Shown one piece after another: positions 4,872 to 60,006 of a DNA stretch of 64,000 nucleotides. Made by a program: the position numbers and the translations under genes. Each line of letters opens with the position of its first letter. Positions within the stretch are counted from its first letter, which is position 1. Below the pieces are notes generated by a model that was not told where the DNA came from, searched no databases, and saw only the letters and a program-made list of their open reading frames with translations. This stretch comes from Psilocybe cubensis (lineage: Eukaryota). Location of the stretch: assembly GCA_017499595.2 (NCBI GenBank), contig CM039005.1:1426001-1490000 (forward strand). The letters are read 5' to 3'.

Positions 4872-5719
4872 GGGTATGATTTGACCTGGGGAGTGTCGTC
4901 AAACGTAGTAAAATGCTCACCTTTATATCGAACACAAATGTACAGAGGGCCACCATTGGCACCAAGCGCACAACGAAGTCTCATGGCCCGTATCATCGAA
5001 TATATGTGCGGCCCATTACGATTTAAAAACGTTTAAACCCTATGGAAGTGAGCCTCAACACAACGATTGAATATTAAACCCAGTCGATGGCCTGTGAGAT
5101 GCAGTCATTTGTTCTGTCTCGTATGGAGACGAACGATACCTGTCAGATTCAATGTCATGCCGGGAATGCATAAGGCCCACATTCAATCGGACGAAAGTCG
5201 AAAGCGATAAGATCCTAACTGGTTAAGCATCAAGTAAGTTTGAAAGTAAACATGGCTAAGTTTAGTAGTACCGCTGGACGATAACAGACGAGAGGTCTTA
5301 ATTGTGCGTGGTGGTTCAACCTCAGACTGCGCGGCATGCATCGCCTGCATTAGATACTTGGCACAAGCTCGCGGGCCGTCACGCAGCTCTTTTTCCCATT
5401 TTACCAGTAGCACCGGTGGCCCAGCGTATTCCCATGCCTGAGTATTTCTAGGCCACCGTCGTACATATTGGTGCAGTGGGTGAAGCAAGTTGAACTTTGG
5501 CAACTGAAAAACCGGCCCTTCATTAAATTGAATTCACATGATCACGTGCAGTACGCGTTTGCGCACGGTCTGATCAGATTTTGGTCAGGTCAGTTTGAGG
5601 CCATTTCTCAAATCGGACTTCCTCACTTTCAAAAATGTCTCACTCGTTGCTCTGGTTTTCACCACGTTCTGCACATCCAAGTGCAGCATCAAGTCACACT
5701 AGTAAACTGTATATGTGCT

Positions 5720-8435
<2,716 letters not shown>

Positions 8436-23432: not shown

Positions 23433-26400
23433 ATGGACAGGGTCAATGGACAAAATCCTTCCAAACCCACAAAGGAAAAACAACGAGAATTCCAAAACAT
23501 ATTCTCAGTTCAATTTCGTTCACGACTTGCCCTCAGTTCAGAATGTCTCCCAGGCCCTTCAAAAAACGGCTATCATGTACATTGTATGCTCGTTTTTAGA
23601 CGGAAAGCACGCTCACACGCATCTATGTAGAAACCTGTACCTCAAAATGCTCCAAAATTACCGTTTGTCGCGTCAAGTCCCTGAATCGACGCGGTTTTTG
23701 CTAACAAGCTTGTATCCAGCGGAGCCCCTTCATCAAGTGCAATACAACGCTCAACTTTACCTTCAAAGGTGCTTTTTGATCCTGTAGGGAAACTCCGAAT
23801 AGTAAGTACTACTGAATTTAGTTTTTTTTCTCTCCTAAGCGACACAACTCGAGTTTTCGAGGTCTAACAATATAATTCCTTGTTCTTTTTTCCTCCACAG
23901 GCCCTTTCAAATGCTTCAGGAACTGCATCCACGCATCGACAGCCCGCATATATCGACGGAAAATCCCATGGTGTGCGAATATCCAAGATCAATGAGCACG
24001 GCCCTGGGCCCAATTCCAAAGCGATCGACGACGAAAAGGGGGAGAGATCACTGAAGCGCACTCATGCGAAGCTGAAAGAGTCCAAAAGGCATGACAATTC
24101 AGAAGAAGATGAGGAAGAACCACCACCCCGCAAATACAAGAAGATGGTTGTCGAGGATGATTCGGATGAGGAGCTGTCGCATTATAACAGCGACAGTATA
24201 TCGAGGACAAGGGTGCTTCCTCAAGTAGCCGATGAGACGGACGAGCAGGAGACTTCAGATGAAGACGAACGGTCGAGTCATGCTTCAGGCGTCAACTCAG
24301 ACGAAGATCAGTCGTCGCAAGGCACAGCGAGTCCGACGCCTCAGTTATCTGAAGAAACGGGAGATGAGGGAAGCTCGGATCGGGGTGAAGACCAGGAGTA
24401 CGACCTAGAAGTCGATACAGGTAAAAAAGAATCGCGAACATCCACGAGGAGGTCTGTTGTTGTGGTGGAAGAGTCCTCCGATGAGGCTGAGGAGGATGAG
24501 GAGGGTTCATCTGAGGGAGGTGTAGCCGGGGATCATTCGGAAGAGGAGAAGAAAAAAAGCACGCAACGGACGGAGCTGATACCCGGTTCAGATGAAGATG
24601 ACTATATGCAGCCTCCCCCTCTCCCTGTTATTGATTTCGATTCAGATGAAGAGGATGCAAAGCGTTCCTTTAAGGGAGGCGTCGTAGTGGGTCACTTGGA
24701 AGAGAAGCGAGAGAGCACGCAACCTACGGAGCTGATACCCGATTCAGATGAAGATGATTATGCGCCTCCCCCTCTTCCTGTTATTGATTTCGACCTAACC
24801 TCTGAATCATCATTGCCCTGTGAAAAAGTGGCGGCGACGGAGGAGGAGGAGGAGGAGGAAAGCGAAGAAGAGGAGAAAGTGAGAGGACGGAAGATGTTGG
24901 TGGTCTCTGATTCTGAAGGGGAAGATGCGAAATCCGCCTCGGGAAGTATGACGGAAACGGATGATGAAAGTGCGGGGCAAGAGAATGCTGAGGAACAAGA
25001 TGAAGAAGAGGATCAACTGCAGTCGGAGAATGTCACAGTTCTTACGGAGCCTGAAGGCGACAGTCTTTTCTCTGCTGATAGCCCCGGCGATGACATCGAC
25101 GAGTTGGGTGCCGATATAATGAGCCGAGCTCTGAAGCTCTTCCTAGGCGATGAAGACGCGAACATGCAGGTAGCCACTACTGCACTTGGATCTGAAAATA
25201 AACAAATGCCTGTCCCAGTACCTACCCATCCCGCGGCGTCAGCTTCTCATTCCCTGCCAGGTGTGCTTAATCATGTTATTCCCTATATCCCTTTTGCTGA
25301 CCTACCTCATCTATCCCATCTGTCGTTTCCTTCTGCAGATCGAATTCAAGCACATTCTCAACCGCAAACCTCTACGCTTGATATCCTTGATGCCATTACG
25401 CGTCTAGAGAAAAAACTCGAAGATAATATACGCGTTACCTTTGCTGAGCAAAACGCCAAATGGGAACAGGAAATTTTACTACGCGCTGAACGAGATAAAT
25501 CCCAGTTGTTGGAGATCACGCGGAGAGAGGAAGAGAGAAAGGCGGAGCGCGAGAAGGAGAGAGCAATGGCTGAGGCTAAGGAGAGGGAAAGAGAGAGGGA
25601 AAGGGAATTGGAGAGGCAGATACAAGCCGAACGCGAGTCGACGCGTCAAGCTGAACAGGAACGCGTCTTGAAGGAATTAGAACGCGAGAAAACGCGTCAA
25701 ATGGAACAGGAACGTGTTGCACGAGAGATGGACCACGAAAAAGCGCGTCAGGCTGAACAAGAGCGCGTGGCACGCGAGTTGGAACTTGAGAAAGCACATC
25801 AGGTCGCGTTGGAGCGCGAAAAGGCGCGTCAAGCTGAACTGGAACGCGAGTTAGAGAGGCAGCGGGAGTTTTCGCGGCAGGTGGAGAAAGAACGTGATGA
25901 GGAGAGACGGCGGAGGAGCGAGGAGATGGAGATGGAGAAGGCGAAGAGGTTGCAGCAGGTCTTGGAGATGCAGCGCGAGAAGAAGCGGCATGCGGAGGAA
26001 CTTGCAGCTACGAATGCGAATGCGAATGTTGTTCCTGCACCGGTGCCCCAGTTGGTGGTCCCGCCTGAGATTGAAGATCGGATTGCGAAGCGGATATTGG
26101 AGATCTTGACACCTGCCTTGGGGGAGATGTTTCATGCGCGGTTCGAGGCGGACAAGATGGCGTATCAACAAAAGATGGATCAGGAGAGAGCACAACAAAG
26201 GGAGGAGAATGGACGTATGCATGCTGAGTGGCAGAGACTTCACGAAGAAAAGCAGAATGCACGCGACGAGCGAAGGGAAAGGATATGGGAGGAGAGGCAG
26301 TCATTGCGTGATGAGCAGCGGGAAAGGGCATGGGAAGAAAGAGAGAAACTGCGTGAAGCTAGGGAGGAGCAGGGAAAAGAGGACAGATTGGAGGTTATAA

Positions 26401-27708
26401 AAAGTATGATGATGGCTTGGGAGAGTGAACACGAGGCCAAGGAGAGGCTGAGGAATGATGCGGAGCTGCGAAGGGAGGTCCAGCGTATGCAAGAAAAAGA
26501 AGATTTGAAGAGACGGGACGAGGAAAGAGACGCCAGAGAGCAAGCACGTTTTGAAGAGTTGCAGCAGAAGATTGAGGAGCGCTATTTGCAGAAAGCACAA
26601 GACGAAAAGAAAGACAAGCATCTCCAGAATGTGGCTCGAGCGCTTGGTATATTGGGAGATCGCCTGGGGGTTGTACTCAACGTCCTTGGAGTAGGACTAG
26701 ACGGTAAATTTATTGGCTCTGGGTCCATCAACATCACCACAACAGCTTCCTCTGCCGAAACGCCGTTTGCCGCTATAGGGAGAACGAGGAGAGGCCTTGC
26801 GCGCGGTGAAATCCAAGAAGATGATGAGGTTGAAGTCATCGACGTCGACATGGAGGAGACCTGGCCCACGGCGTCGACTTCGACCACGGCGCCACATATC
26901 AAGAATCCGGAGGTCAAGAGCGTGATGGAGAGGCTAACGAATGTTGAAATGGACCTTCAAGAATGTTTGGAGCGACTGAGGGATCCATTGGCGGAATTTA
27001 GTACTGACATACAGACCCTACTCCAGGCTGGGGTTAGACCAGGCATCCAAAACCAACAATCCACTGATGGTGTGTCTCCTCTCTTCTAGTTCTTGCTTTG
27101 GAAAGAGTCACCAAGACTTAATTCAGCCGACAAGTCGACAAGAATCACGCACGAGATATGGACGAGTCCTGTTAGGTCTGGAGATGTTGATACACCGAAA
27201 GCAAAGAGGAGGAGCCCTTCTATTGGTCAACAGGTCACGGCAGAGAGTTCTTCGATCATACCACAACAGCTACCCAACGATAAAATAATGGAACAGATGG
27301 GTACTTTGTCTACTTTCTCACTGGTTAATATGCAGCCACTGACCTACATTACTTTCAGACGGCCTATCTGAATTAATCTTCAACAATTCACAGATCTTCC
27401 AAGGTCAAATCCTGGAATTGAAAGCAGAAATAACGACCGTAAAGGAGCTTGTGGGCAAGTTTAATCTTCTTATTTCGATATCTTTTACTGACCCGAGATT
27501 TGTACAGGATCTATCACTTCCAGAATTGCGACACGAAAACCATCCAAGTTCCTGCAGGAACCCCCTTCCAGTCAGCGAGGATATGATGGAGATCTGTCAG
27601 AAGAAGACGATGAAGAGCCTGGGGAAGATGTGTTTGGTCCCCTCGTCGCAAATTCGTCGCCTTTCGGGATGCACGGACCGCTGGTGGCCCCTATCCCGCA
27701 TGCACCCG
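23433..27708 (+). CDS. Large acidic low-complexity/coiled-coil protein; may be the 5' half of a gene that continues into the PHD-chromodomain ORF
   Basis: Frame-consistent exon chain from ATG 23433 through the 1069-aa ORF (exon 23901-27069), then 27127-27300, 27359-27454 and 27508-27708, ending at a GTATGT donor (27709). Long E/R/Q-rich helical region. Confidence 0.7.
24525..24795 (+). repeat. Internal duplication of about 110 nt (STQxTELIPxSDEDDYxxPPPLPVIDFD, two copies)
   Basis: Near-identical DNA agcacgcaa..acggagctgataccc..ttcagatgaagatga..cctccccctct.cctgttattgatttcga at about 24558-24640 and 24714-24793. Confidence 0.85.
25628..25860 (+). repeat. Degenerate 51-nt (17-aa) tandem repeats in the coiled-coil region
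   Basis: RESTRQAEQERVLKELE / REKTRQMEQERVAREMD / HEKARQAEQERVARELE, with recurring cgcgtca...gaaca.ga.cg.gt. Confidence 0.75.
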
Positions 27709-28273
27709 GTATGTCCTTCTTTCCAAATCCGACCTTGTGGGCGACCTTGCGAACATTAGAACGACATGCTAACGACTTCTTCTTTCTCTTCCTGTATCAC
27801 TATCTCCATGGTCTCTCTCTGCCCTCCAACTTTCTGGAATCTGATACACTTGAAATTTCAAATTATCCCCAATATTTTGTTCAATTCTCTATTTTTGGCC
27901 TATTTTCAATCAAATCGGGCAATATGCCGCCCCCTGACTTTCGTCGGCTACGTCGACCTCACCTTTCTTCTTGATTGCCACCTTTGAACTTGCCCTTGCG
28001 CATTTTCTGGGTTTACCTTTCCCTTTCCTTTCTTCTGTCGTCTCTCCTTGACGACACCCGCCCACCTCAATCCGTCCTTTATACTATTGTTTGCCTCGCT
28101 TCGGTCGCTTTACATCTGTCATCTTGAACATCTGTTGGTTTTTGCTTTTGTGGTGGTATCCCTTTCCTTCTTTTTTTTGTGTTTGGATCGTTTTTATTCT
28201 TCATGCGCCGCCGTTACACTCGCGGCGATTCTTTCTTTCACCCTCTTTTGATTGCATCTGATACCTACCATCC

Positions 28274-31200
28274 ATGGCGGACTTGCCTCCGTCTCACCCA
28301 ACCAATGCGAACACCATATCGACATCGACCGACGCGCCAACGACGTCGACACATCGTGATTCGACACATTCCAACTCGGCATCGTCTACTCAACCGCATG
28401 CATCGACATCTTCCGCACCCGCTGCGCACTCGTCGACAATTTCACCCGGATCCACGACACTAATGTCGACAAACGAAATCATCGCGCGCTTCATTCCCTT
28501 TCTCAATCCTGTCCCTATTCCAATTAACTGGGATATGGGTAATAATGTCGCGTTACGACAATTAGTTTCCACTCTTCTTGGTGACCCTACAGTGTTTGAC
28601 ATGGTAGATGAAGGAGCAATGGAACAGAGTGCGACACCAGCGGAAGACCTGACAATGCAGGATGGAGCTCTGCTGCCCGGAGCGCCTTCGGCCACAGTGG
28701 AAGAGGAGCCACAGGAGCTGGTTAGCGATACCGATGCCGTTATAGATAACATGGTGCCGGTGGAAGATAACAATGCTCCTCTTGGTTTCCGAGGCGAGAA
28801 TGTGGCTCCCGATGTCGCGGTCGACAACGCGCAGGCGACTTACGAAGAGCAGACGGACGCTTCTCATGCCAGCTCCAGTTCTTTGCACCGATCTGGCTCC
28901 CATCGCCGCTCAAAACCGCCCAGAGGTCAATTTTCACCTGTCGATTGGTCCACAACGCCGAGAACTGAGACGAGAGATGGCAACGTCATACTGAACCTTA
29001 GCCCGACTGCCAAACTACTTCTCGGACCTCCCTCTACGTCTCCGTCTCCGTTCCAGAGAAGCACATCTAGCCCGATTGCAAATCCCAGTATGAACCCCAG
29101 CGCGCTGCACAATCTCGCCAGTTCTTTATCAGCAAGTAGGCATACGATAGCAACGACACCTCCGCTGGCGATGACCCCCACCAGATCCTACACACTGCCG
29201 CCCCCGATGGAAGGCTCAATCGCTGAGCTGAGGAAGGCGACGTTAGGGACGGCGTATACAGATGCATATGTATACGGAGAAGCGCTGAAGAGAGAGCGCA
29301 GCTTTGGTGGTCATGAGACGGGCGATGGAAGGGAAGGCAGAGTAGACATGGTTATGGGTGCAGAGGCGGGCGAGAGAATGTTGAGTCCCCAGAGCGAAGA
29401 GGAGGAAGACGAAGAGGACAACGGCGATGCTGAAGAAGGAAATGAGGATGAGGATGAGGACGATGATGATGACGAGCAGAGGGATGAATTAATGGACGAT
29501 GATCAAGACCAGACGGTCCAGGGGTCGAAAGGTGCTGCACTCGCTTCCGGCGTGGCGTCTATATCTCTGGAAGGGGAATCAACCGCGGACATTGTGTTGA
29601 AAGAGACCACAGAGTCCAATGCATCCTCATTGTCAACTCTCACATCTTTGGCTCCTTCGACTGTTGGATCTACTCCCGAACGTGACATACAGACAAACCC
29701 TACTCCGTCAGCTCAGGCTGATTCTTCATCTTTGCCTACGATCGATGCAACAACAACCAATTTTGTTTCTCTAAGAAAGGATTCTACTATACGTCCTATC
29801 TCTACTGTCGAACCCTCGAACTCGGCTGCCACTTTGTCTGTATCTCATACCGCTTCAACTGCGACTTTGTCAACGTCCGCCACTACAACGATCCCATTCA
29901 CAGATTCTCAGCAATCTCAGACGATAGAAGACGAAGATACTGTGCACGCCTTGGTTATGGTGGGATCTCAGGATTCACAATTCAACGAAGAGATGTATGA
30001 TGTCAATGCTGATGATACGATGGGTAGCGCGCTCACATCTTACGGATACGAGGATGATGAAGATGTGACAGCGCCTGTTCCGGAAAACACATTGTCACCG
30101 CTCTTCACAACACCTTCGCAGACCCCCGCCCCCCAAGTTTCCTCTGCTGGCCCGTCCTCGTCACTTCAACGTCAAGAATCTGCTCATGGTGGTTCTTCAT
30201 TCGATGAAGACCACACGATGGACACGTCTACTCCCATCAAGGCCAAATCTGCAGCTTTCAAACATGGTTCTAATCTCGACGAAGAGGAGAATTCAGAAAC
30301 GACGAGGATTGTCCAGGCGAAGAAAGAATTGAATAGCCCGATAACTGTTCCAGCGCAGATTGGACGAAAGTATACGTATATCCCGTCCGAATCGCCCTCA
30401 CCCAGTAGGATGTCCAAGCCTGCTAAATTCATAGCCCAGGCAAATCCGAAAGCGTCGACGTCGAAAGCCCATGCTACGAATGAGATTGCGGAAAACGTTT
30501 CTAATGCTCCTGGAACGTCGTCTCAGCGCGCACCCATGAAGCCCAAGAAGGAAGCTCTGACCATCAAGAAAGAGAAACCAAGCACGTCGCAGCCCCCGGA
30601 CGATGTAATATCCATTTCCTCTGATACCGACGATGAAATCGTGGTTAGGCCATCTCAAACTCAGACGCAGAAAAACCCTCCGACACTTTCGCAGAAACCT
30701 TCTACGCAGTCGAGAGCGACTGTTCCGAGGCCAATCCCTGATGCGAGACGCAAGGCTTCTGCTAAGACCAATTCTCCTGAAATTGTCGACCTTACAACAC
30801 CTGTGAGGGCTGCCCCTGCGGCAGCAGCAATGAGTTCTCGCCCACAAGTGCGAACTTTTGACCCTCTTTCTCATCTCGCGTCAACTTCGAAGGCTCTGTC
30901 TGAAAATCCTAAGAAGCTTGTAGAATCTGTAAAGCCTGTGCCCGTTCAGGAGAAACCAACGACACACAAACCCGAGGATATCAAAGGGAAAGGGAAAGAA
31001 ACTGCCGCACCGGCACCCGTGCCTGAACCTGAACCTGCTCCCGAATCCCGATTTTCCTCCCCATTGACCGAAGAGGAATCTGAGGTCGAGGAACCGGCCC
31101 CTCCTGTGCGCTCCCCCTTTGACCTCGTGAAAGCTACCGCGCGCATAATACAGCCGCCCAATGCCTCCGACGAAGATGCCCCTGTCATAAGGAATCAGAC

Positions 31201-32643
31201 CAAGAAGAAGATATCATTACGACCCGCCCCTTCTTTTGCCTCAGGATTGTTCGACAGCAACCTGACGGGACAGAGCAAAGCAACCGGTACGACTGGAGCG
31301 CCCCCAAAAAAGAGCACCTTTACCGACCGGCTGACAGCAAAGTTGGGTAAAAGCGTGGCAGCTACGAGGATAAAGAAGCGTAAGCGCCCCGAGGCGAGCC
31401 CTGATGTGTCTAATGAAAATGCAGCAGCTGAAGATGTGCCTGAACGTGAGCAACCGCCCTTAAAGAGGGCAAGGGCGCGTAGTGCTGCTACTACCGCGTC
31501 TTCCTCCTCTGTGCCCCCAGTAGGTAAAGGGAAGGTGGTGGATCTGCGGCGGGCAAGTCTGAGAAATAAAGAAATGGTAATTAAGGAGGAAGCCTCATCA
31601 ACAAGGTACCCAATGCGGTCACCCCGAAAAGATTCTGTCGGAAGCTCCGCTGCTTCTATATCGACTCCCACTTTGAAGAAAAAGCGCGAATCTGATCTGG
31701 TGTGGCCTAAGATGCAGAATCCTAATTTTGATCGCGTACGTATATAGCTTTCACAATCAGAGGATTTAATTTAACTCGATTATCTCTCGACACATACATA
31801 GTTTGTCAAATGCGACGAGTGGGTAAACTATCCTTGAGTGGCATGTAGTTTTATACTGACCATGAACTGCTTACTATCTGCCTAGATGCGAGACGTGGTA
31901 CCACATTGGGTGCGTAGGCCTGGAGCCGGACGACAAACACCTACAAGATACAGAACATTATGTCTGTCCGGTGTGCACAGCTGGCATCCCCAAGTGCGTT
32001 CAATACACTTAGACTTCCATGTGTATTTTCTGATGGATAGCTACTTCCTATTCTATTGTATCCTTGACTTAATCAGAAGCAGTGAGTCTTTTGCACGATA
32101 TTTCTTTCCTCAAAATTCTAAATCAAAATCATGTCTGGATTTCGTAGAATCCCCTGTCAAGAAAATCAACGATGAGGAAGTCAACGGCCTCAAAGCACCT
32201 TGCGCCAGGCCGCGCTGTCTCCTAACCTATGTCAAACGGCGCACCAAGAACAAGAATTCACAGCAACTGCTTCAAGAGCCACAGGTATACCTCGTGGAGG
32301 CCCTCGTAGGGCGGCGCAAGACGGTCGTTAGTGGAAAGGGGATATCTTACGAATATCTAGTTAAATGGCAAAAGTAAGGCTCTTTTCCAGTACCCGTGGC
32401 TTATCCGAGACCTCTTCATTTTATTGATTCACCATCTACTTTTTACATAGCTACGATTATGTCGACGCAACTGTTGAAAACCTAGACAGCATGGGGATGT
32501 CTAATCCTGGCCCTCTTGTCGAAGCTTTTGAAAATCAGGCCATTGCTGAAGGTAACAACTTCGAAGCAAGTGACACTGTTATCCTCCAGGAAGCTGTCGA
32601 AGCCGGCTGGACCAATGACATGGTCTATACAAAGCCTAAATGA
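28274..32643 (+). CDS. Large disordered protein with C-terminal PHD-like finger and chromodomain
   Basis: The 1157-aa S/T/P-rich ORF splices to FVKCDECETWYHIGCVGL...YVCPVC (PHD-like), then YLVEALVGRR...YEYLVKWQNYDYVDAT (chromodomain with Y/W/Y cage residues). Stop at 32641-32643. Confidence 0.85.
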
Positions 32644-33352
32644 TTTCTTGCCCGAATATCTTTCTTGCCCTATTTTTTCCCTTTTCCAAGTTTTGGTCAT
32701 CGCTTATATGTCAACTTTCTTATCAGATATCTCTCGAACCTCTTTTCTGTGTCATTCCTCCTCGTTTCACTGTACATAACACAATTGTCATCACTACGCA
32801 TTATCGCTATCCATCATCGTCTACTACGCTTTTTTCTTGGAATTTTCTCTAGATACCTCATCCTATACCCTCTGCTTCATTGTCCAGTTTCTAGCCATCT
32901 CATCATCTTGCTACCACTTATGCACCTGTATATACGGTATATGCTCTCGAATTCCTATGTTTGTTTACCTTGTTCATTGCTCAGCTTGCTTTTACAACCA
33001 TGTGTATTCACCCTACCTGATGGTTAATTTCCTAGTCCGTTAATCCATATTAGAGAAATGTGTACATAGTAAATGCGGTACTAATATGAACGACTAAATT
33101 ATGGTGCGTCCTGGTATCGTGCTCAAATAATTAAGGAATAAATGGATGTGAGCAAAGTATGCAAAGAAAAAAAAAATAGAACGTGTGATCGGGGTGGACA
33201 TTAATAGTTTCCAAGGATTCTCATGGGTATGGATGAAGAAAGAGGAAAATATAGAAAGAAGGCATCTCCAACCAAGGTCGATGTGTAAAGTATCACAGAA
33301 ACACAGGTTGACTGACGACCACCATGTGCCGACCCCGACAGAGAGTGGAATG

Positions 33353-34475
33353 TTATACCAAAATGACGGCCAGCAGTAGCGCCATGAGCACGATCATCAG
33401 AATGATGATGCACCACCCGCTGCCCTTTTCTTCTGAATCGCGTAGGAATTTTCGCATACGTCGCATCGCGTCGTTGAGCTTCTGATCTGACCGGTCCACG
33501 TTCGCCTCAAGGTCAGTAAGCATTCTAGTGAACAGAGGCATAAGCTGCGGGATTTGCACTAAGAAGTCTCGTCACCACGTACTCGTTATGCTCTTCGATT
33601 TCCTGGCCCATCAAGCTCGCTTGCTGTGCTAGTGTGTTTAGCGTGCCCGCTATTGAATCCATCGTGTGGTCTTGCTGTTGAAGCATAATCTACGAATTAA
33701 TTAGCACTGGTTCCCGCATCGTTGAAGTATGCACGGAGGTGCAGAGGGGTGACAGTACCTGCTGCTCTTGTCGAGCCCATTCCGATTGGTGGTCGTCCCC
33801 ATATCTCTCTGAGAATGGTGAACCAGGGCCTGCTCGAGGAGAAATTGCGTGAAGCTGCGTACCGGACCCTGATGGCTGCGAGGCAGATGGGGATGAGGAT
33901 ACGTTGGCTCTCATGTTCTGGACTTCCGAAGGGACATTATTAGTGGTCTATTATGCAAAAAATGAAGAACATGAAATGAAAGACAGGATCGCGGAGTCGC
34001 AGAGTCACGGAGGAGCATGGAAGGGTGAAAGGTAATGCGATGAACAGGCAGACGCACCTCTATTTCTTTTCGTACATGCCCCACATATCTCCGCCGTTTT
34101 TGAACCTCAGCATCATCAAGTCCGAACATTCTTGCATCTGTTGACTCTACAATCCTTCATAATTTGTCGCCTCGTCAAATAACTGGAATTGTCTGGTGGA
34201 TGAAAGCACATACTTGACACTCTCCTCCAGATCTTCAAGGTCTGCCTCTAGCGTCGCGAGTGTGGCCTTCAACTGTTTGATAGAATGCCATTTGAAGCAT
34301 GCCCTCTTTGTGCAGTGACATTGACAATACTCACCTCATTCCTGGCCCACATCAACTCTTCACTATCTTCCCTCGCCATATTCCTTATACGAAGAAATGA
34401 CGACTGCAGCTGTGCAGCGGTCTGCAGAGAGTTCTGGATCTCTTGTTGCACAGCATGGTAAGGGTCTACAGACAT
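33353..34475 (-). CDS. TLG1: Qc-SNARE Tlg1/syntaxin-6-like
   Basis: MSVDPYHAVQQEIQ (syntaxin-6 N-terminal domain), LEADLEDLEESV, SNARE motif QQDHTMDSIAGTL...LEANVDRSDQKL and a C-terminal TM (WCIIILMIVLMALLLAVILV). Confidence 0.9.
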
Positions 34476-58100: not shown

Positions 58101-58672
58101 GAAAATCGCCATCCGAGTGCGATTCCAGAGGGCGCGTTGATGGTTGTCCTCATTGTTATCACCGTATGTTTTTTTGGCATTGAATTGCCGTGGCAGTGTT
58201 AACTGACGACGATGGGGTATGATAGGCCGGGTTCCATATCATCATCAATAACTCCTACGGTCCTCTCCTTTCCGCTCTGCCTCTGAGTTTGCAAGACCGC
58301 ACACTCACCGCCACCGTCATCGAGGCTCAGCCCAGCGGCACAGCCGGCCCATCCTCCGACGCGTCCGCTGTCAACGTCGAAAGCCGACAAAGCACAGACA
58401 AGAAAGATTCGTCTGAAGAACGGCTGACGAAAGATAGAGAAGCGGCGGATACGGCTGCTGCGGAGGAAGAGGAGGAGTCGTATGGGTTCGCGCAGCCTGC
58501 TGCGTCGAGGCCGCAGAGGACGGTGTGGATACCTAGAGATGCGTTGGGGTTGTGGAGGGAGGAGGAGAGGGGGTGTGAGCAGGCGGGAGTTAGGGTTTCG
58601 GAAAGGCATGCGGTTATGGATGAGAAGGGCAAAGTGGATGTGGATGGGGGTCCGCCGGATTTGCTGCAGTGA
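55118..58672 (+). CDS. OSCA/TMEM63 (Csc1/Rsn1, DUF221) calcium-permeable channel
   Basis: FVTALVFN, IYEPRTY, NGLDAYFFVRFLR, SAFVTFN, APADVIWGNL, LAQNLPQASTFF, YSVIAPIING, DTGGLFYPKALQHIFVGLYVEQICLCALFFLA. Confidence 0.95.
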
Positions 58673-60006
58673 ATTTGAGGCTGCGGCTGCTGCATAGCAT
58701 CTGAGGGATCTTGGTCTCCATGAAAAATGTTTTTACTATCTTTTTTTTTGACGATCTTTTTTTGATGTGGCTCTGACGTTTCTCCATTATACCCCCCACC
58801 CCTGTTGACGACTTTACGATTTCTTACTTGTCTTTTTTTTGCATGCGGCTTCTTGTTGTACACCCCTGACGCGACGTCTGTGGTGACTGGAGGACGGACG
58901 CTCTTTTTTTGGTTTTTACATTACTTGATTGTAGCTTGGTGCTTAAAATCTGATGACATGTACTATGTATATCTCTACTACTATCTACTTGTTCTCCTTT
59001 CTCATAAGTCCCAGGAGCGGGCCCGGTGTTCTATTTGTCCGACGCATCACGCATATCTCTCGAGATTCGCTTGTCTTATTCTTAAGTCTGGTGTACTGAC
59101 ACAGTTGTGCCTTGAGGCCTTGAGGCTTGAGCGGCATGCAAAGCCGTTGTGTCAAATGGAAATGTCAAGTGTCATGCCATGTCTTGTTATATTGGCCTTG
59201 GGCGATGGCCGACAGTGGGTGGGCGCCGCTGGATTTAAATATGTATGGTGTTAGCCTGTTTCTTTTGGTATAGTACTACCGAAGGCCGGAGGATTAACGA
59301 TTAATGTTGCATAATTACCCGTTTCTGTTTGAGTGAATATTACACTACTAGTAGTACAAAAGTATCCCGAACTTTGGATTTTCATAGTCATTCAGTCGAG
59401 ACAGTCCAGCAGCAGCCTTACTCCCAGTTGTCATCCACTGGCATATCTTTGTTACAATATCTCTGTGGCTCATGGCCTGACAGCTCCGCGGCGTATTAGT
59501 TACCTATTCTTGAGTTGGAACTGCTTAGCCTGAGGCTGCGATCGAAGCCTTAAACTCGAAGCTTGATGGCCTGAAATTTTCAATTTGAATGCCGGTCGTC
59601 ATTGTCAATGAAGGACTGTACTATGATCTCACTTGAAGACTCCGTCTCTCCGTGTCCTGGACGGCAATCGCCGTAACTGTCAGCGCCCTTTCAATGGTCT
59701 TGCGACCTTTTTTTAGCAGACATTCAGCCTTTTCATTTATCCGGTGCCTCCTTCCATGATGTATCTGTGCTTATATGCCGACCTTTACTTCCCGTTCTCG
59801 AGTGGAACCGCACTTGTGGGATGAGATTTGTCCAAGACAAGTTTAGTTGAATAACCGGGATCTACCTTTGGATTGATTGAGTCGCCTACTTACCGGTGAG
59901 TCTGTCACATATGCCCCCATTTAACGGAATATATAGAGTGTACTTTAATATATGACTGACATTAACCACCACTTCAGGTCAACGCGACACCACAGACGCA
60001 CCGCGT

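Follow-up and report, generated by a model that had tools for sequence, protein, structure and literature searches.

Why would a coding sequence avoid one single dinucleotide over its entire beginning? At this locus of Psilocybe cubensis, a reading frame for a protein with a PHD finger and a chromodomain starts with 97 codons that are free of AG. A preliminary description had proposed two possible uses for this segment, as the first coding exon of a short isoform and as intron of a long isoform, with codon choice constrained by splicing. Positions are those of the window, the whole 64-kb stretch of DNA that was analysed. The segment in question is the following:

28274-28564, + strand: first 97 codons of the predicted short isoform (MADLPPSHPT...), all of them within the AG-free zone; the ORF opens at 28262.

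The database protein P0001 (NCBI JR316_0008964) starts at the same ATG, 28274, and is 100% identical to the ORF. Within the 97 codons, all 17 serines are encoded by TCN, all three arginines by CGN, both glutamines by CAA and the only glutamate by GAA; lysine is absent. The rest of the two large ORFs at the locus uses AGY for 45 of 218 serines, AGR for 67 of 153 arginines, CAG for 65 of 105 glutamines and GAG for 139 of 267 glutamates. The 97 residues were redrawn with synonymous codons according to the codon usage of the locus. None of 20000 redraws was free of AG; the mean was 8.9 AGs and the minimum one.

The gap is larger than the coding segment:

27760-28563, + strand: AG exclusion zone of 804 nt, bounded by the AGs at 27758-59 and 28564-65.

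From base composition, about 24 AGs are expected in these 804 nt, and none is present. GA, which has the same expectation, occurs 33 times and CT 77 times. All 15 other dinucleotides are present with at least 22 copies each (GA, AA and GG with 22-46), hence the gap is specific for AG on the + strand. In the 64-kb window, the runner-up among AG-free runs measures 187 nt. The longest run without any other dinucleotide is 321 nt (CC), and the 804-nt run is the longest without any dinucleotide. The 5' part of the zone, upstream of the ATG at 28274, comprises 514 non-coding nucleotides with 70% pyrimidines. The coding part is not pyrimidine-rich, yet AG-free. Mononucleotide shuffles of the whole zone, the non-coding part and the coding part never yielded an AG-free sequence (0/5000 for each). 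Downstream of 28565, AG has a normal frequency, with 233 copies in 3182 nt versus 216 expected. The codon biases and the missing AGs of the preliminary description were thus reproduced, as was the return of AG-containing codons after 28565. Its extent of the gap was right for the 291-nt coding stretch and too short for the zone, which includes the non-coding 514 nt.

What surrounds the zone was examined in the gene structure. The upstream neighbour, the zone borders and the downstream exons are, in order:

23433-27708, + strand: upstream half 'A' of the putative long isoform, 8 exons, ending in phase 1 (joints in X1 contigs, open frame).
27709-27714, + strand: strong 5' splice site G/GTATGT after the last A exon, read directly from the DNA.
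27758-27759, + strand: AG that precedes the zone, located 13 nt 5' of the candidate branch-point A at 27772.
27767-27773, + strand: TGCTAAC, the first branch-point-like motif (YTRAY) after the donor, with its A at 27772 (+63).
27776-27793, + strand: 18-nt all-pyrimidine tract right behind TGCTAAC, read directly.
28524-28528, + strand: TTAAC, another candidate branch point, proximal to the putative acceptor (38 nt upstream of it).
28564-28565, + strand: putative 3' splice site, phase 1, first AG after the candidate branch point; its G is the first base of the Val codon GTT.
28566-31735, + strand: large exon common to both isoforms, disordered, with conserved FSPVDW and ERMLSP blocks.
31802-32643, + strand: downstream exons 31802-31818, 31886-31993, 32077-32081, 32148-32373 and 32451-32643 (joints in X1 and X2 contigs).

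The A product is charged and coiled-coil-like. It had no match to a Pfam domain, and a homolog search with the upstream (A) protein gave no match. Its seven introns are of the GT/GC..AG type with 53-99 nt, including one GC-AG intron, according to joints in X1 RNA contigs. The downstream exons encode the PHD finger and the chromodomain and end with the stop codon at 32641-43. On single exons of the window, the PHD finger was recognised with an E-value of 2.6e-5 and 24.6 bits (Pfam cut-off 24) and the chromodomain with 0.0042 and 17.4 bits, under the Pfam cut-off of 25.1. Both domains are above the cut-offs in the ortholog P0005 and are precomputed for P0001.

The segment between A and the large exon has the borders of an intron. 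Joining the G at 27708 to the TT at 28566 keeps the frame and rebuilds the Val codon GTT. The resulting long ORF is uninterrupted over 2512 aa from the first Met of A to the stop at 32641-43. This putative optional intron, 27709-28565, is a phase 1 intron of 857 nt and about ten times as long as the other 12 RNA-supported introns (53-99 nt). In the other introns of the gene, a CTRAC motif lies 15-38 nt upstream of the end. Here, the putative acceptor AG sits 793 nt downstream of the A in TGCTAAC, and the zone starts 13 nt upstream of this adenosine. The AG at 27758-59 is an unusable acceptor for a branch at A27772, because it lies upstream of that A. Between the 5' splice site at 27709 and this AG, no YTRAY motif was found. 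A 51-nt intron, 27709-27759, was considered and rejected. It is in frame, and the upstream ORF then stops at 27972-74; it has no internal YTRAY and no joint in the contigs. Its counterpart in the orthologous locus described below has 52 nt and shifts the frame.

In splicing, the first AG that follows the branch point serves as acceptor. At the sequence level, the idea of an acceptor search that proceeds downstream from the branch point rests mainly on AG exclusion zones. Ordinary long introns tolerate AG because their branch point is near the acceptor. A constraint on AG over a whole intron therefore needs a special reason, the likeliest being a branch point located at its 5' end. The coiled-coil gene A and the PHD/chromodomain ORF would form one transcription unit, joined by the optional intron 27709-28565. 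The branch would be formed at TGCTAAC, 63 nt after the donor, and the acceptor would be the first AG downstream. Since splicing uses the first AG it meets past the branch point, selection would act against every AG between branch and acceptor. The same stretch of 800 nt would be the 5' UTR and the first 97 codons of a shorter protein without the coiled-coil half. As intron and short coding start share these 800 nt, the codons of the short isoform would be limited to AG-free choices. We consider this reading, a distal-branch AG exclusion zone in an 857-nt optional intron that doubles as 5' UTR and coding start of the short isoform, to be the probable one. TGCTAAC may thus be the branch point that is actually used.

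An independent view was provided by the one orthologous DNA locus compared, L001, an 18.8-kb metagenome locus that encodes P0003 and belongs to another genus-level lineage. The protein identity is 29-38%, depending on the comparison. Synteny is visible in the order of a GH47 mannosidase, an A-like gene and a B-like gene, the latter corresponding to the PHD/chromodomain ORF. Position 5028 is the end of the A-like exon, in phase 1, and the donor C/GTGAGT comes next at 5029. The first YTRAY after the donor is TGCTGAC with its A at 5093 (+64), and T-rich tracts come next. The last AG, 5079-80, lies 13 nt before the A of the branch motif, the same spacing as in P. cubensis. The AG-free zone 5081-5863 measures 783 nt and has no AG versus 27.8 expected. 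In L001, the runner-up AG-free run has 134 nt, and the longest run without any other dinucleotide has 286 nt. The first AG after the zone, at 5864-65, has phase 1 and continues the frame of the upstream exon. P0003 starts inside the zone, at 5523, and its first 114 codons are without AG. Synonymous resampling of these codons gave no AG-free sequence in 20000 draws (mean 14.9, minimum 5), nor did shuffles of the L001 segments (0/5000).

The two introns share 45.6% identical positions, and shuffled controls reached 40.7-44.7%; the introns are unalignable. The AG gap was thus maintained through complete sequence turnover and not inherited. Single substitutions that create an AG are frequent among those possible: 277 of 2412 in the zone of P. 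cubensis and 295 of 2349 in the zone of L001, or about 11.5-12.6%. An AG-free stretch of about 800 nt in two distant species suggests an unusually long acceptor search.

Protein models of relatives were collected with an exhaustive single-sequence search using the large exon (four) and with word-indexed searches (three and six, the six from a profile search). Judged from these sequences, the PHD/chromodomain protein is fast-evolving. Fused A+B models make up four of ten collected proteins: P0002 of Gymnopilus junonius, P0007 of Agrocybe pediades, P0008 of Cyclocybe aegerita and P0009 of Agrocybe chaxingu. The fused as well as the short forms in relatives are gene predictions. The junction of A and B could be placed in two models, P0002 and P0007, and in both it is at the position of the zone. 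P0007 aligned with L001 up to 5018 and again from 5880, and the zone was skipped. A motif of the A type (..RL.N.EMDLQECLE..) is common to the A product, P0002, P0006, P0007, P0008 and P0009.

Alternative beginnings of the protein are also present among these predictions. P0004, from a second contig of G. junonius, matches P0002 with 100% identity across the 282 aa that follow the junction; their upstream parts are unrelated. In A. pediades, P0005 and P0007 are alike downstream of the junction and different upstream, and P0006 is a model of A only that runs into the intron. Some models of relatives start inside the zone. The N-termini of the short forms range from 48 to about 132 residues, and in four species a motif of the form phi-phi-x-x-phi..(I/L)P..(W/F)D(L/M) could be aligned immediately ahead of the junction. 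The copies read TNEIIARF..IPFLN..INWDM, MSRIMSLL..IPTING.DWDL, TSQILSVL.LPTVIW..EFDL and TDTFLT.IPNIDWTEFDL. The remainder of the short-form N-terminus is unconserved among the four species. The junction codon starts with G in four of four species (Val, Asp, Ala, Gly), as an AG straddling the codon boundary would require. The proposed double use of the short isoform's first exon as intron of a long isoform, with splicing acting on codon choice, gained support from the L001 locus, the motif in four species, the reading frame and the models of relatives. The preliminary description had suggested orthologs as a test of AG avoidance together with protein conservation. Both were observed, the first in the 783 nt of L001 and the second in the N-terminal motif.

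Transcript evidence came from runs X1 and X2 of one study, which are presumed to be RNA. Ten spliced joints in the gene indicate that they hold RNA-derived contigs. X1 record 4 (27758-29960) and X2 record 6 (27782-28671) cross 28565 unspliced. The contigs are unspliced through the zone, therefore a form with the zone as exon exists. The contig starts at 27758 (X1) and 27782 (X2) are near the start of the zone, and the start site of the short transcript may be there, at the 5' end of the zone; contig ends are not mapped transcription starts. A short transcript starting near 27758 would have four upstream ATGs ahead of the ATG at 28274. The depths are means over whole contigs and were not used to rank isoforms: 40.3 for X1 record 4 versus 10 for record 3, and 17.9 for X2 record 6 versus 56.7 for record 7.

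A joint from 27708 to 28566 or from 27708 to 27760 was not found in the contigs of X1 or X2, with X1 uncovered at about 27646-27757 and X2 uncovered upstream of 27782. Contigs drop rare forms. For this reason and due to the uncovered stretch in X1, the missing joint 27708 to 28566 is weak evidence and not decisive. In P. cubensis, the long splice from 27708 to 28566 is a prediction.

How the splicing machinery would bridge this distance is a separate question. A spacing of 793 nt between branch and acceptor would be extraordinary, far beyond what is documented for fungi. RNA structure that bridges branch and acceptor was searched for in both species and gave no consistent signal, with z-scores of -2.7 in P. 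cubensis and -0.06 in L001 (20 shuffles each). A tentative reading, which we hold to be possible, is a linear search. In these Agaricales, the spliceosome might commit to a branch 63 nt after the donor, with a tiny lariat loop, and then search linearly through about 790 nt for the acceptor, and the intron might act as a kinetic switch. Exon ligation would wait for the transcription of the alternative promoter, the 5' UTR and the first coding exon. Outputs of such a switch would be the full-length chromatin protein, a version without the N-terminal half and a truncated upstream product. Such a search would be about 20 times as long as the spacings that model yeasts tolerate, and the largest human zones named in the available portions of the published reports reach about half its length.

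The strongest alternative retains the dual-use intron and moves the branch point. TTAAC, close to the acceptor, would be the branch, and AGs would be purged as decoy acceptors for a strong donor and branch, in an intron rich in pyrimidines and branch-like motifs and an organism that defines introns across short distances. We regard this as unlikely. In its favour, TTAAC is present in both species, at -38 in P. cubensis and -44 in L001; nine and 13 YTRAY motifs, respectively, lie between donor and acceptor; and the usual spacing of branch and acceptor in the gene is 15-38 nt. Long spacings splice poorly in S. pombe, according to the available part of the reporter study (PMC9508853). However, TTAAC is at the same time coding sequence for the Ile-Asn in the conserved peptide motif, which makes its conservation ambiguous and possibly one of the protein level. 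Avoidance of decoys predicts a depletion near branch-like motifs, not an absence over 800 nt with a sharp start at the first motif. AGs are present between the donor and that motif, one in P. cubensis and two in L001.

Two separate genes that are never joined would be another arrangement. The AG-free zone would then serve the downstream mRNA, by protein binding or translation control, or reflect promoter composition. Annotations are in line with separate genes: NCBI has P0001 as a stand-alone protein of 1358 aa, and in the JGI annotation the A. pediades locus is divided between P0005 and P0006. The contig starts near the zone start and the missing spliced junction 27708 to 28566 in X1 and X2 also agree. 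Against this stands the specificity of the gap: to our knowledge, the only process that excludes AG alone is 3' splice-site choice, and GA, AA and GG are abundant in the zone. Moreover, in both species the zone starts at a module of donor and branch motif and ends at an AG that preserves the frame of the upstream exon, four models are fused, and the coding part is AG-free despite its lack of pyrimidine richness. Separate genes are thus improbable. A RIP-type mutation bias, which depletes CA/TG, was rejected as a cause, as it would not deplete AG. Chance or an artefact of base composition in a CT-rich stretch can hardly be credited: the non-coding part is 70% pyrimidine, but even so 11.3 AGs are expected there and 13.1 in the coding part, GA was seen 17 times in each, no shuffle of any segment in either species was AG-free, and the gap is repeated in an unalignable ortholog.

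The probable distal-branch exclusion zone would have consequences beyond this gene. In it, a splicing rule would govern the choice of synonymous codons and codon pairs over a long coding stretch. About 800 nt with about 100 translated codons, AG-free in two unalignable lineages, make the zone unusually clean as a natural experiment. For the distance of branch and acceptor, it provides a new upper limit to test. If the linear-search reading is true, nature itself would have supplied a proof, tested by evolution, that 3' splice sites are chosen as the scanning model holds. The zone offers a simple assay, in which one synonymous AG is introduced and the shift of the acceptor is watched. The annotation of P. 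cubensis probably splits one gene of 2512 aa in two, and dual-use introns overlooked by gene prediction could be discovered by searching genomes for long stretches without AG.

Distant branch points with AG exclusion zones are described for human and rat, with PTB exon 11, nPTB and alpha-tropomyosin exon 3 as examples in the available text (Gooding et al. 2006, PMC1431707). The largest zones named there have 381 and 438 nt. Many large zones have a candidate branch sequence toward their upstream end, and the worked examples have an adjacent pyrimidine tract. The arrangement is kept in orthologs and linked to alternative splicing (PMC1431707). By analogy, the sharp zone start at a donor-proximal branch motif with pyrimidine tract and the end at an in-frame AG fit this published signature. 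Likenesses to the passages available are the long AG-free stretch upstream of an acceptor, the branch consensus and pyrimidine tract at the upstream side and the conservation in an ortholog. Unlike the zones named there, that of P. cubensis has about 800 nt. The host is a fungus with introns of 50-100 nt, the branch motif adjoins the donor, and the zone is nearly the whole intron. In contrast to the zones in these passages, it includes an alternative protein start with about 100 codons, which places the constraint on coding sequence.

Fungal introns with distant acceptors are described in yeasts. In S. pombe reporters with spacings of 24-39 nt, those of at least 30 nt were already poorly spliced, as far as the available part of the report goes (PMC9508853). 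Targets of Sde2, Cactin and Tls1 in S. pombe (PMC9508853) and COF1 in S. cerevisiae (PMC3239191) have 3' splice sites distant from the branch point. These cases, in the portions accessible, resemble the reading proposed for P. cubensis: whether an acceptor in a fungal intron is used depends on the branch distance, and a long spacing leads to weak, regulatable splicing and retention. They differ in scale, with tens of nucleotides there and about 790 nt proposed here, and in the absence of a consistent bridging structure in P. cubensis and L001. Among the titles and abstracts from full-text literature searches, no fungal AG exclusion zone and none with a coding first exon was found.

Alternative first exons from intronic promoters are a third related system. 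As in those, the shorter protein would begin within an intron of the long form and continue into a shared exon. Unlike those, the first exon at this locus is contiguous with the shared exon and unspliced, and its whole length would be under the constraint of the acceptor search of the long form.

The start of the AG-free zone (27760-28563) has the same spacing in Psilocybe cubensis and in the metagenome ortholog locus L001. In both species the branch-motif A is preceded by the last AG at a distance of exactly 13 nt (window 27758-27782; L001 5079-5093), and the branch point is 63 nt from the donor in P. cubensis and 64 nt in L001. The branch-motif A at 27772 is flanked by contig starts at 27758 and 27782 in X1 and X2, respectively, two contig sets of one study presumed to be RNA. 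These starts may represent a transcription start, the end of a lariat intermediate or an assembly break. Strain differences also occur within the zone. X1 and X2 carry a T>C substitution at 28249, which creates no AG, and X4 has a 4-nt deletion at 28262, 12 nt 5' of the ATG of the short isoform.

The second-longest AG-free run of the 64-kb window has 187 nt (58705-58891). Within 58532-58945, it overlaps with long AA-free (219 nt) and AC-free (204 nt) runs; this region is probably a low-complexity T/C/G-rich tract. Another compositional feature, a strong purine excess on the plus strand at 24001-27000 (GC skew 0.20, AT skew 0.25), matches the part of the upstream gene that encodes a repetitive coiled coil rich in E, R and K, with ER..ARQ.EQERVA repeats. 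The upstream gene also contains a GC-AG intron of 53 nt (27455-27507, G/GCAAGT...CAG). An X1 joint supports this intron after a shift of the cut by 1 nt.

Extra letters between joints in the X1 and X2 contigs match two micro-exons, each bordered by genomic AG and GT:

31802-31818, plus strand, 17-nt micro-exon
32077-32081, plus strand, 5-nt micro-exon AAGCA

With the micro-exons included, the short isoform has a length of 1336 aa. At 1358 aa, its database protein P0001 includes translated intron sequence at the micro-exon region (..AGIPKSSESFARYFFPQNSKSKSCLDFVESPVKK.. vs. ..AGIPKSKSPVKK..). The public model therefore appears to be wrong at this position.

Further downstream, the X1 and X2 contigs have a 24-nt insertion at 33302 relative to the window. 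The insertion falls within the 3' region shared with an ORF on the minus strand (33353-33571), whose product is similar to one encoded in L001 (10119-10391).

In L001, a GH47 alpha-mannosidase gene (1-1400) adjoins the upstream side of the gene resembling the coiled-coil half. The Agrocybe pediades gene model P0007 (2350 aa) fuses a GH47 alpha-mannosidase to the coiled-coil and PHD/chromodomain parts of the long isoform, and is probably an over-merged prediction at its GH47 end.
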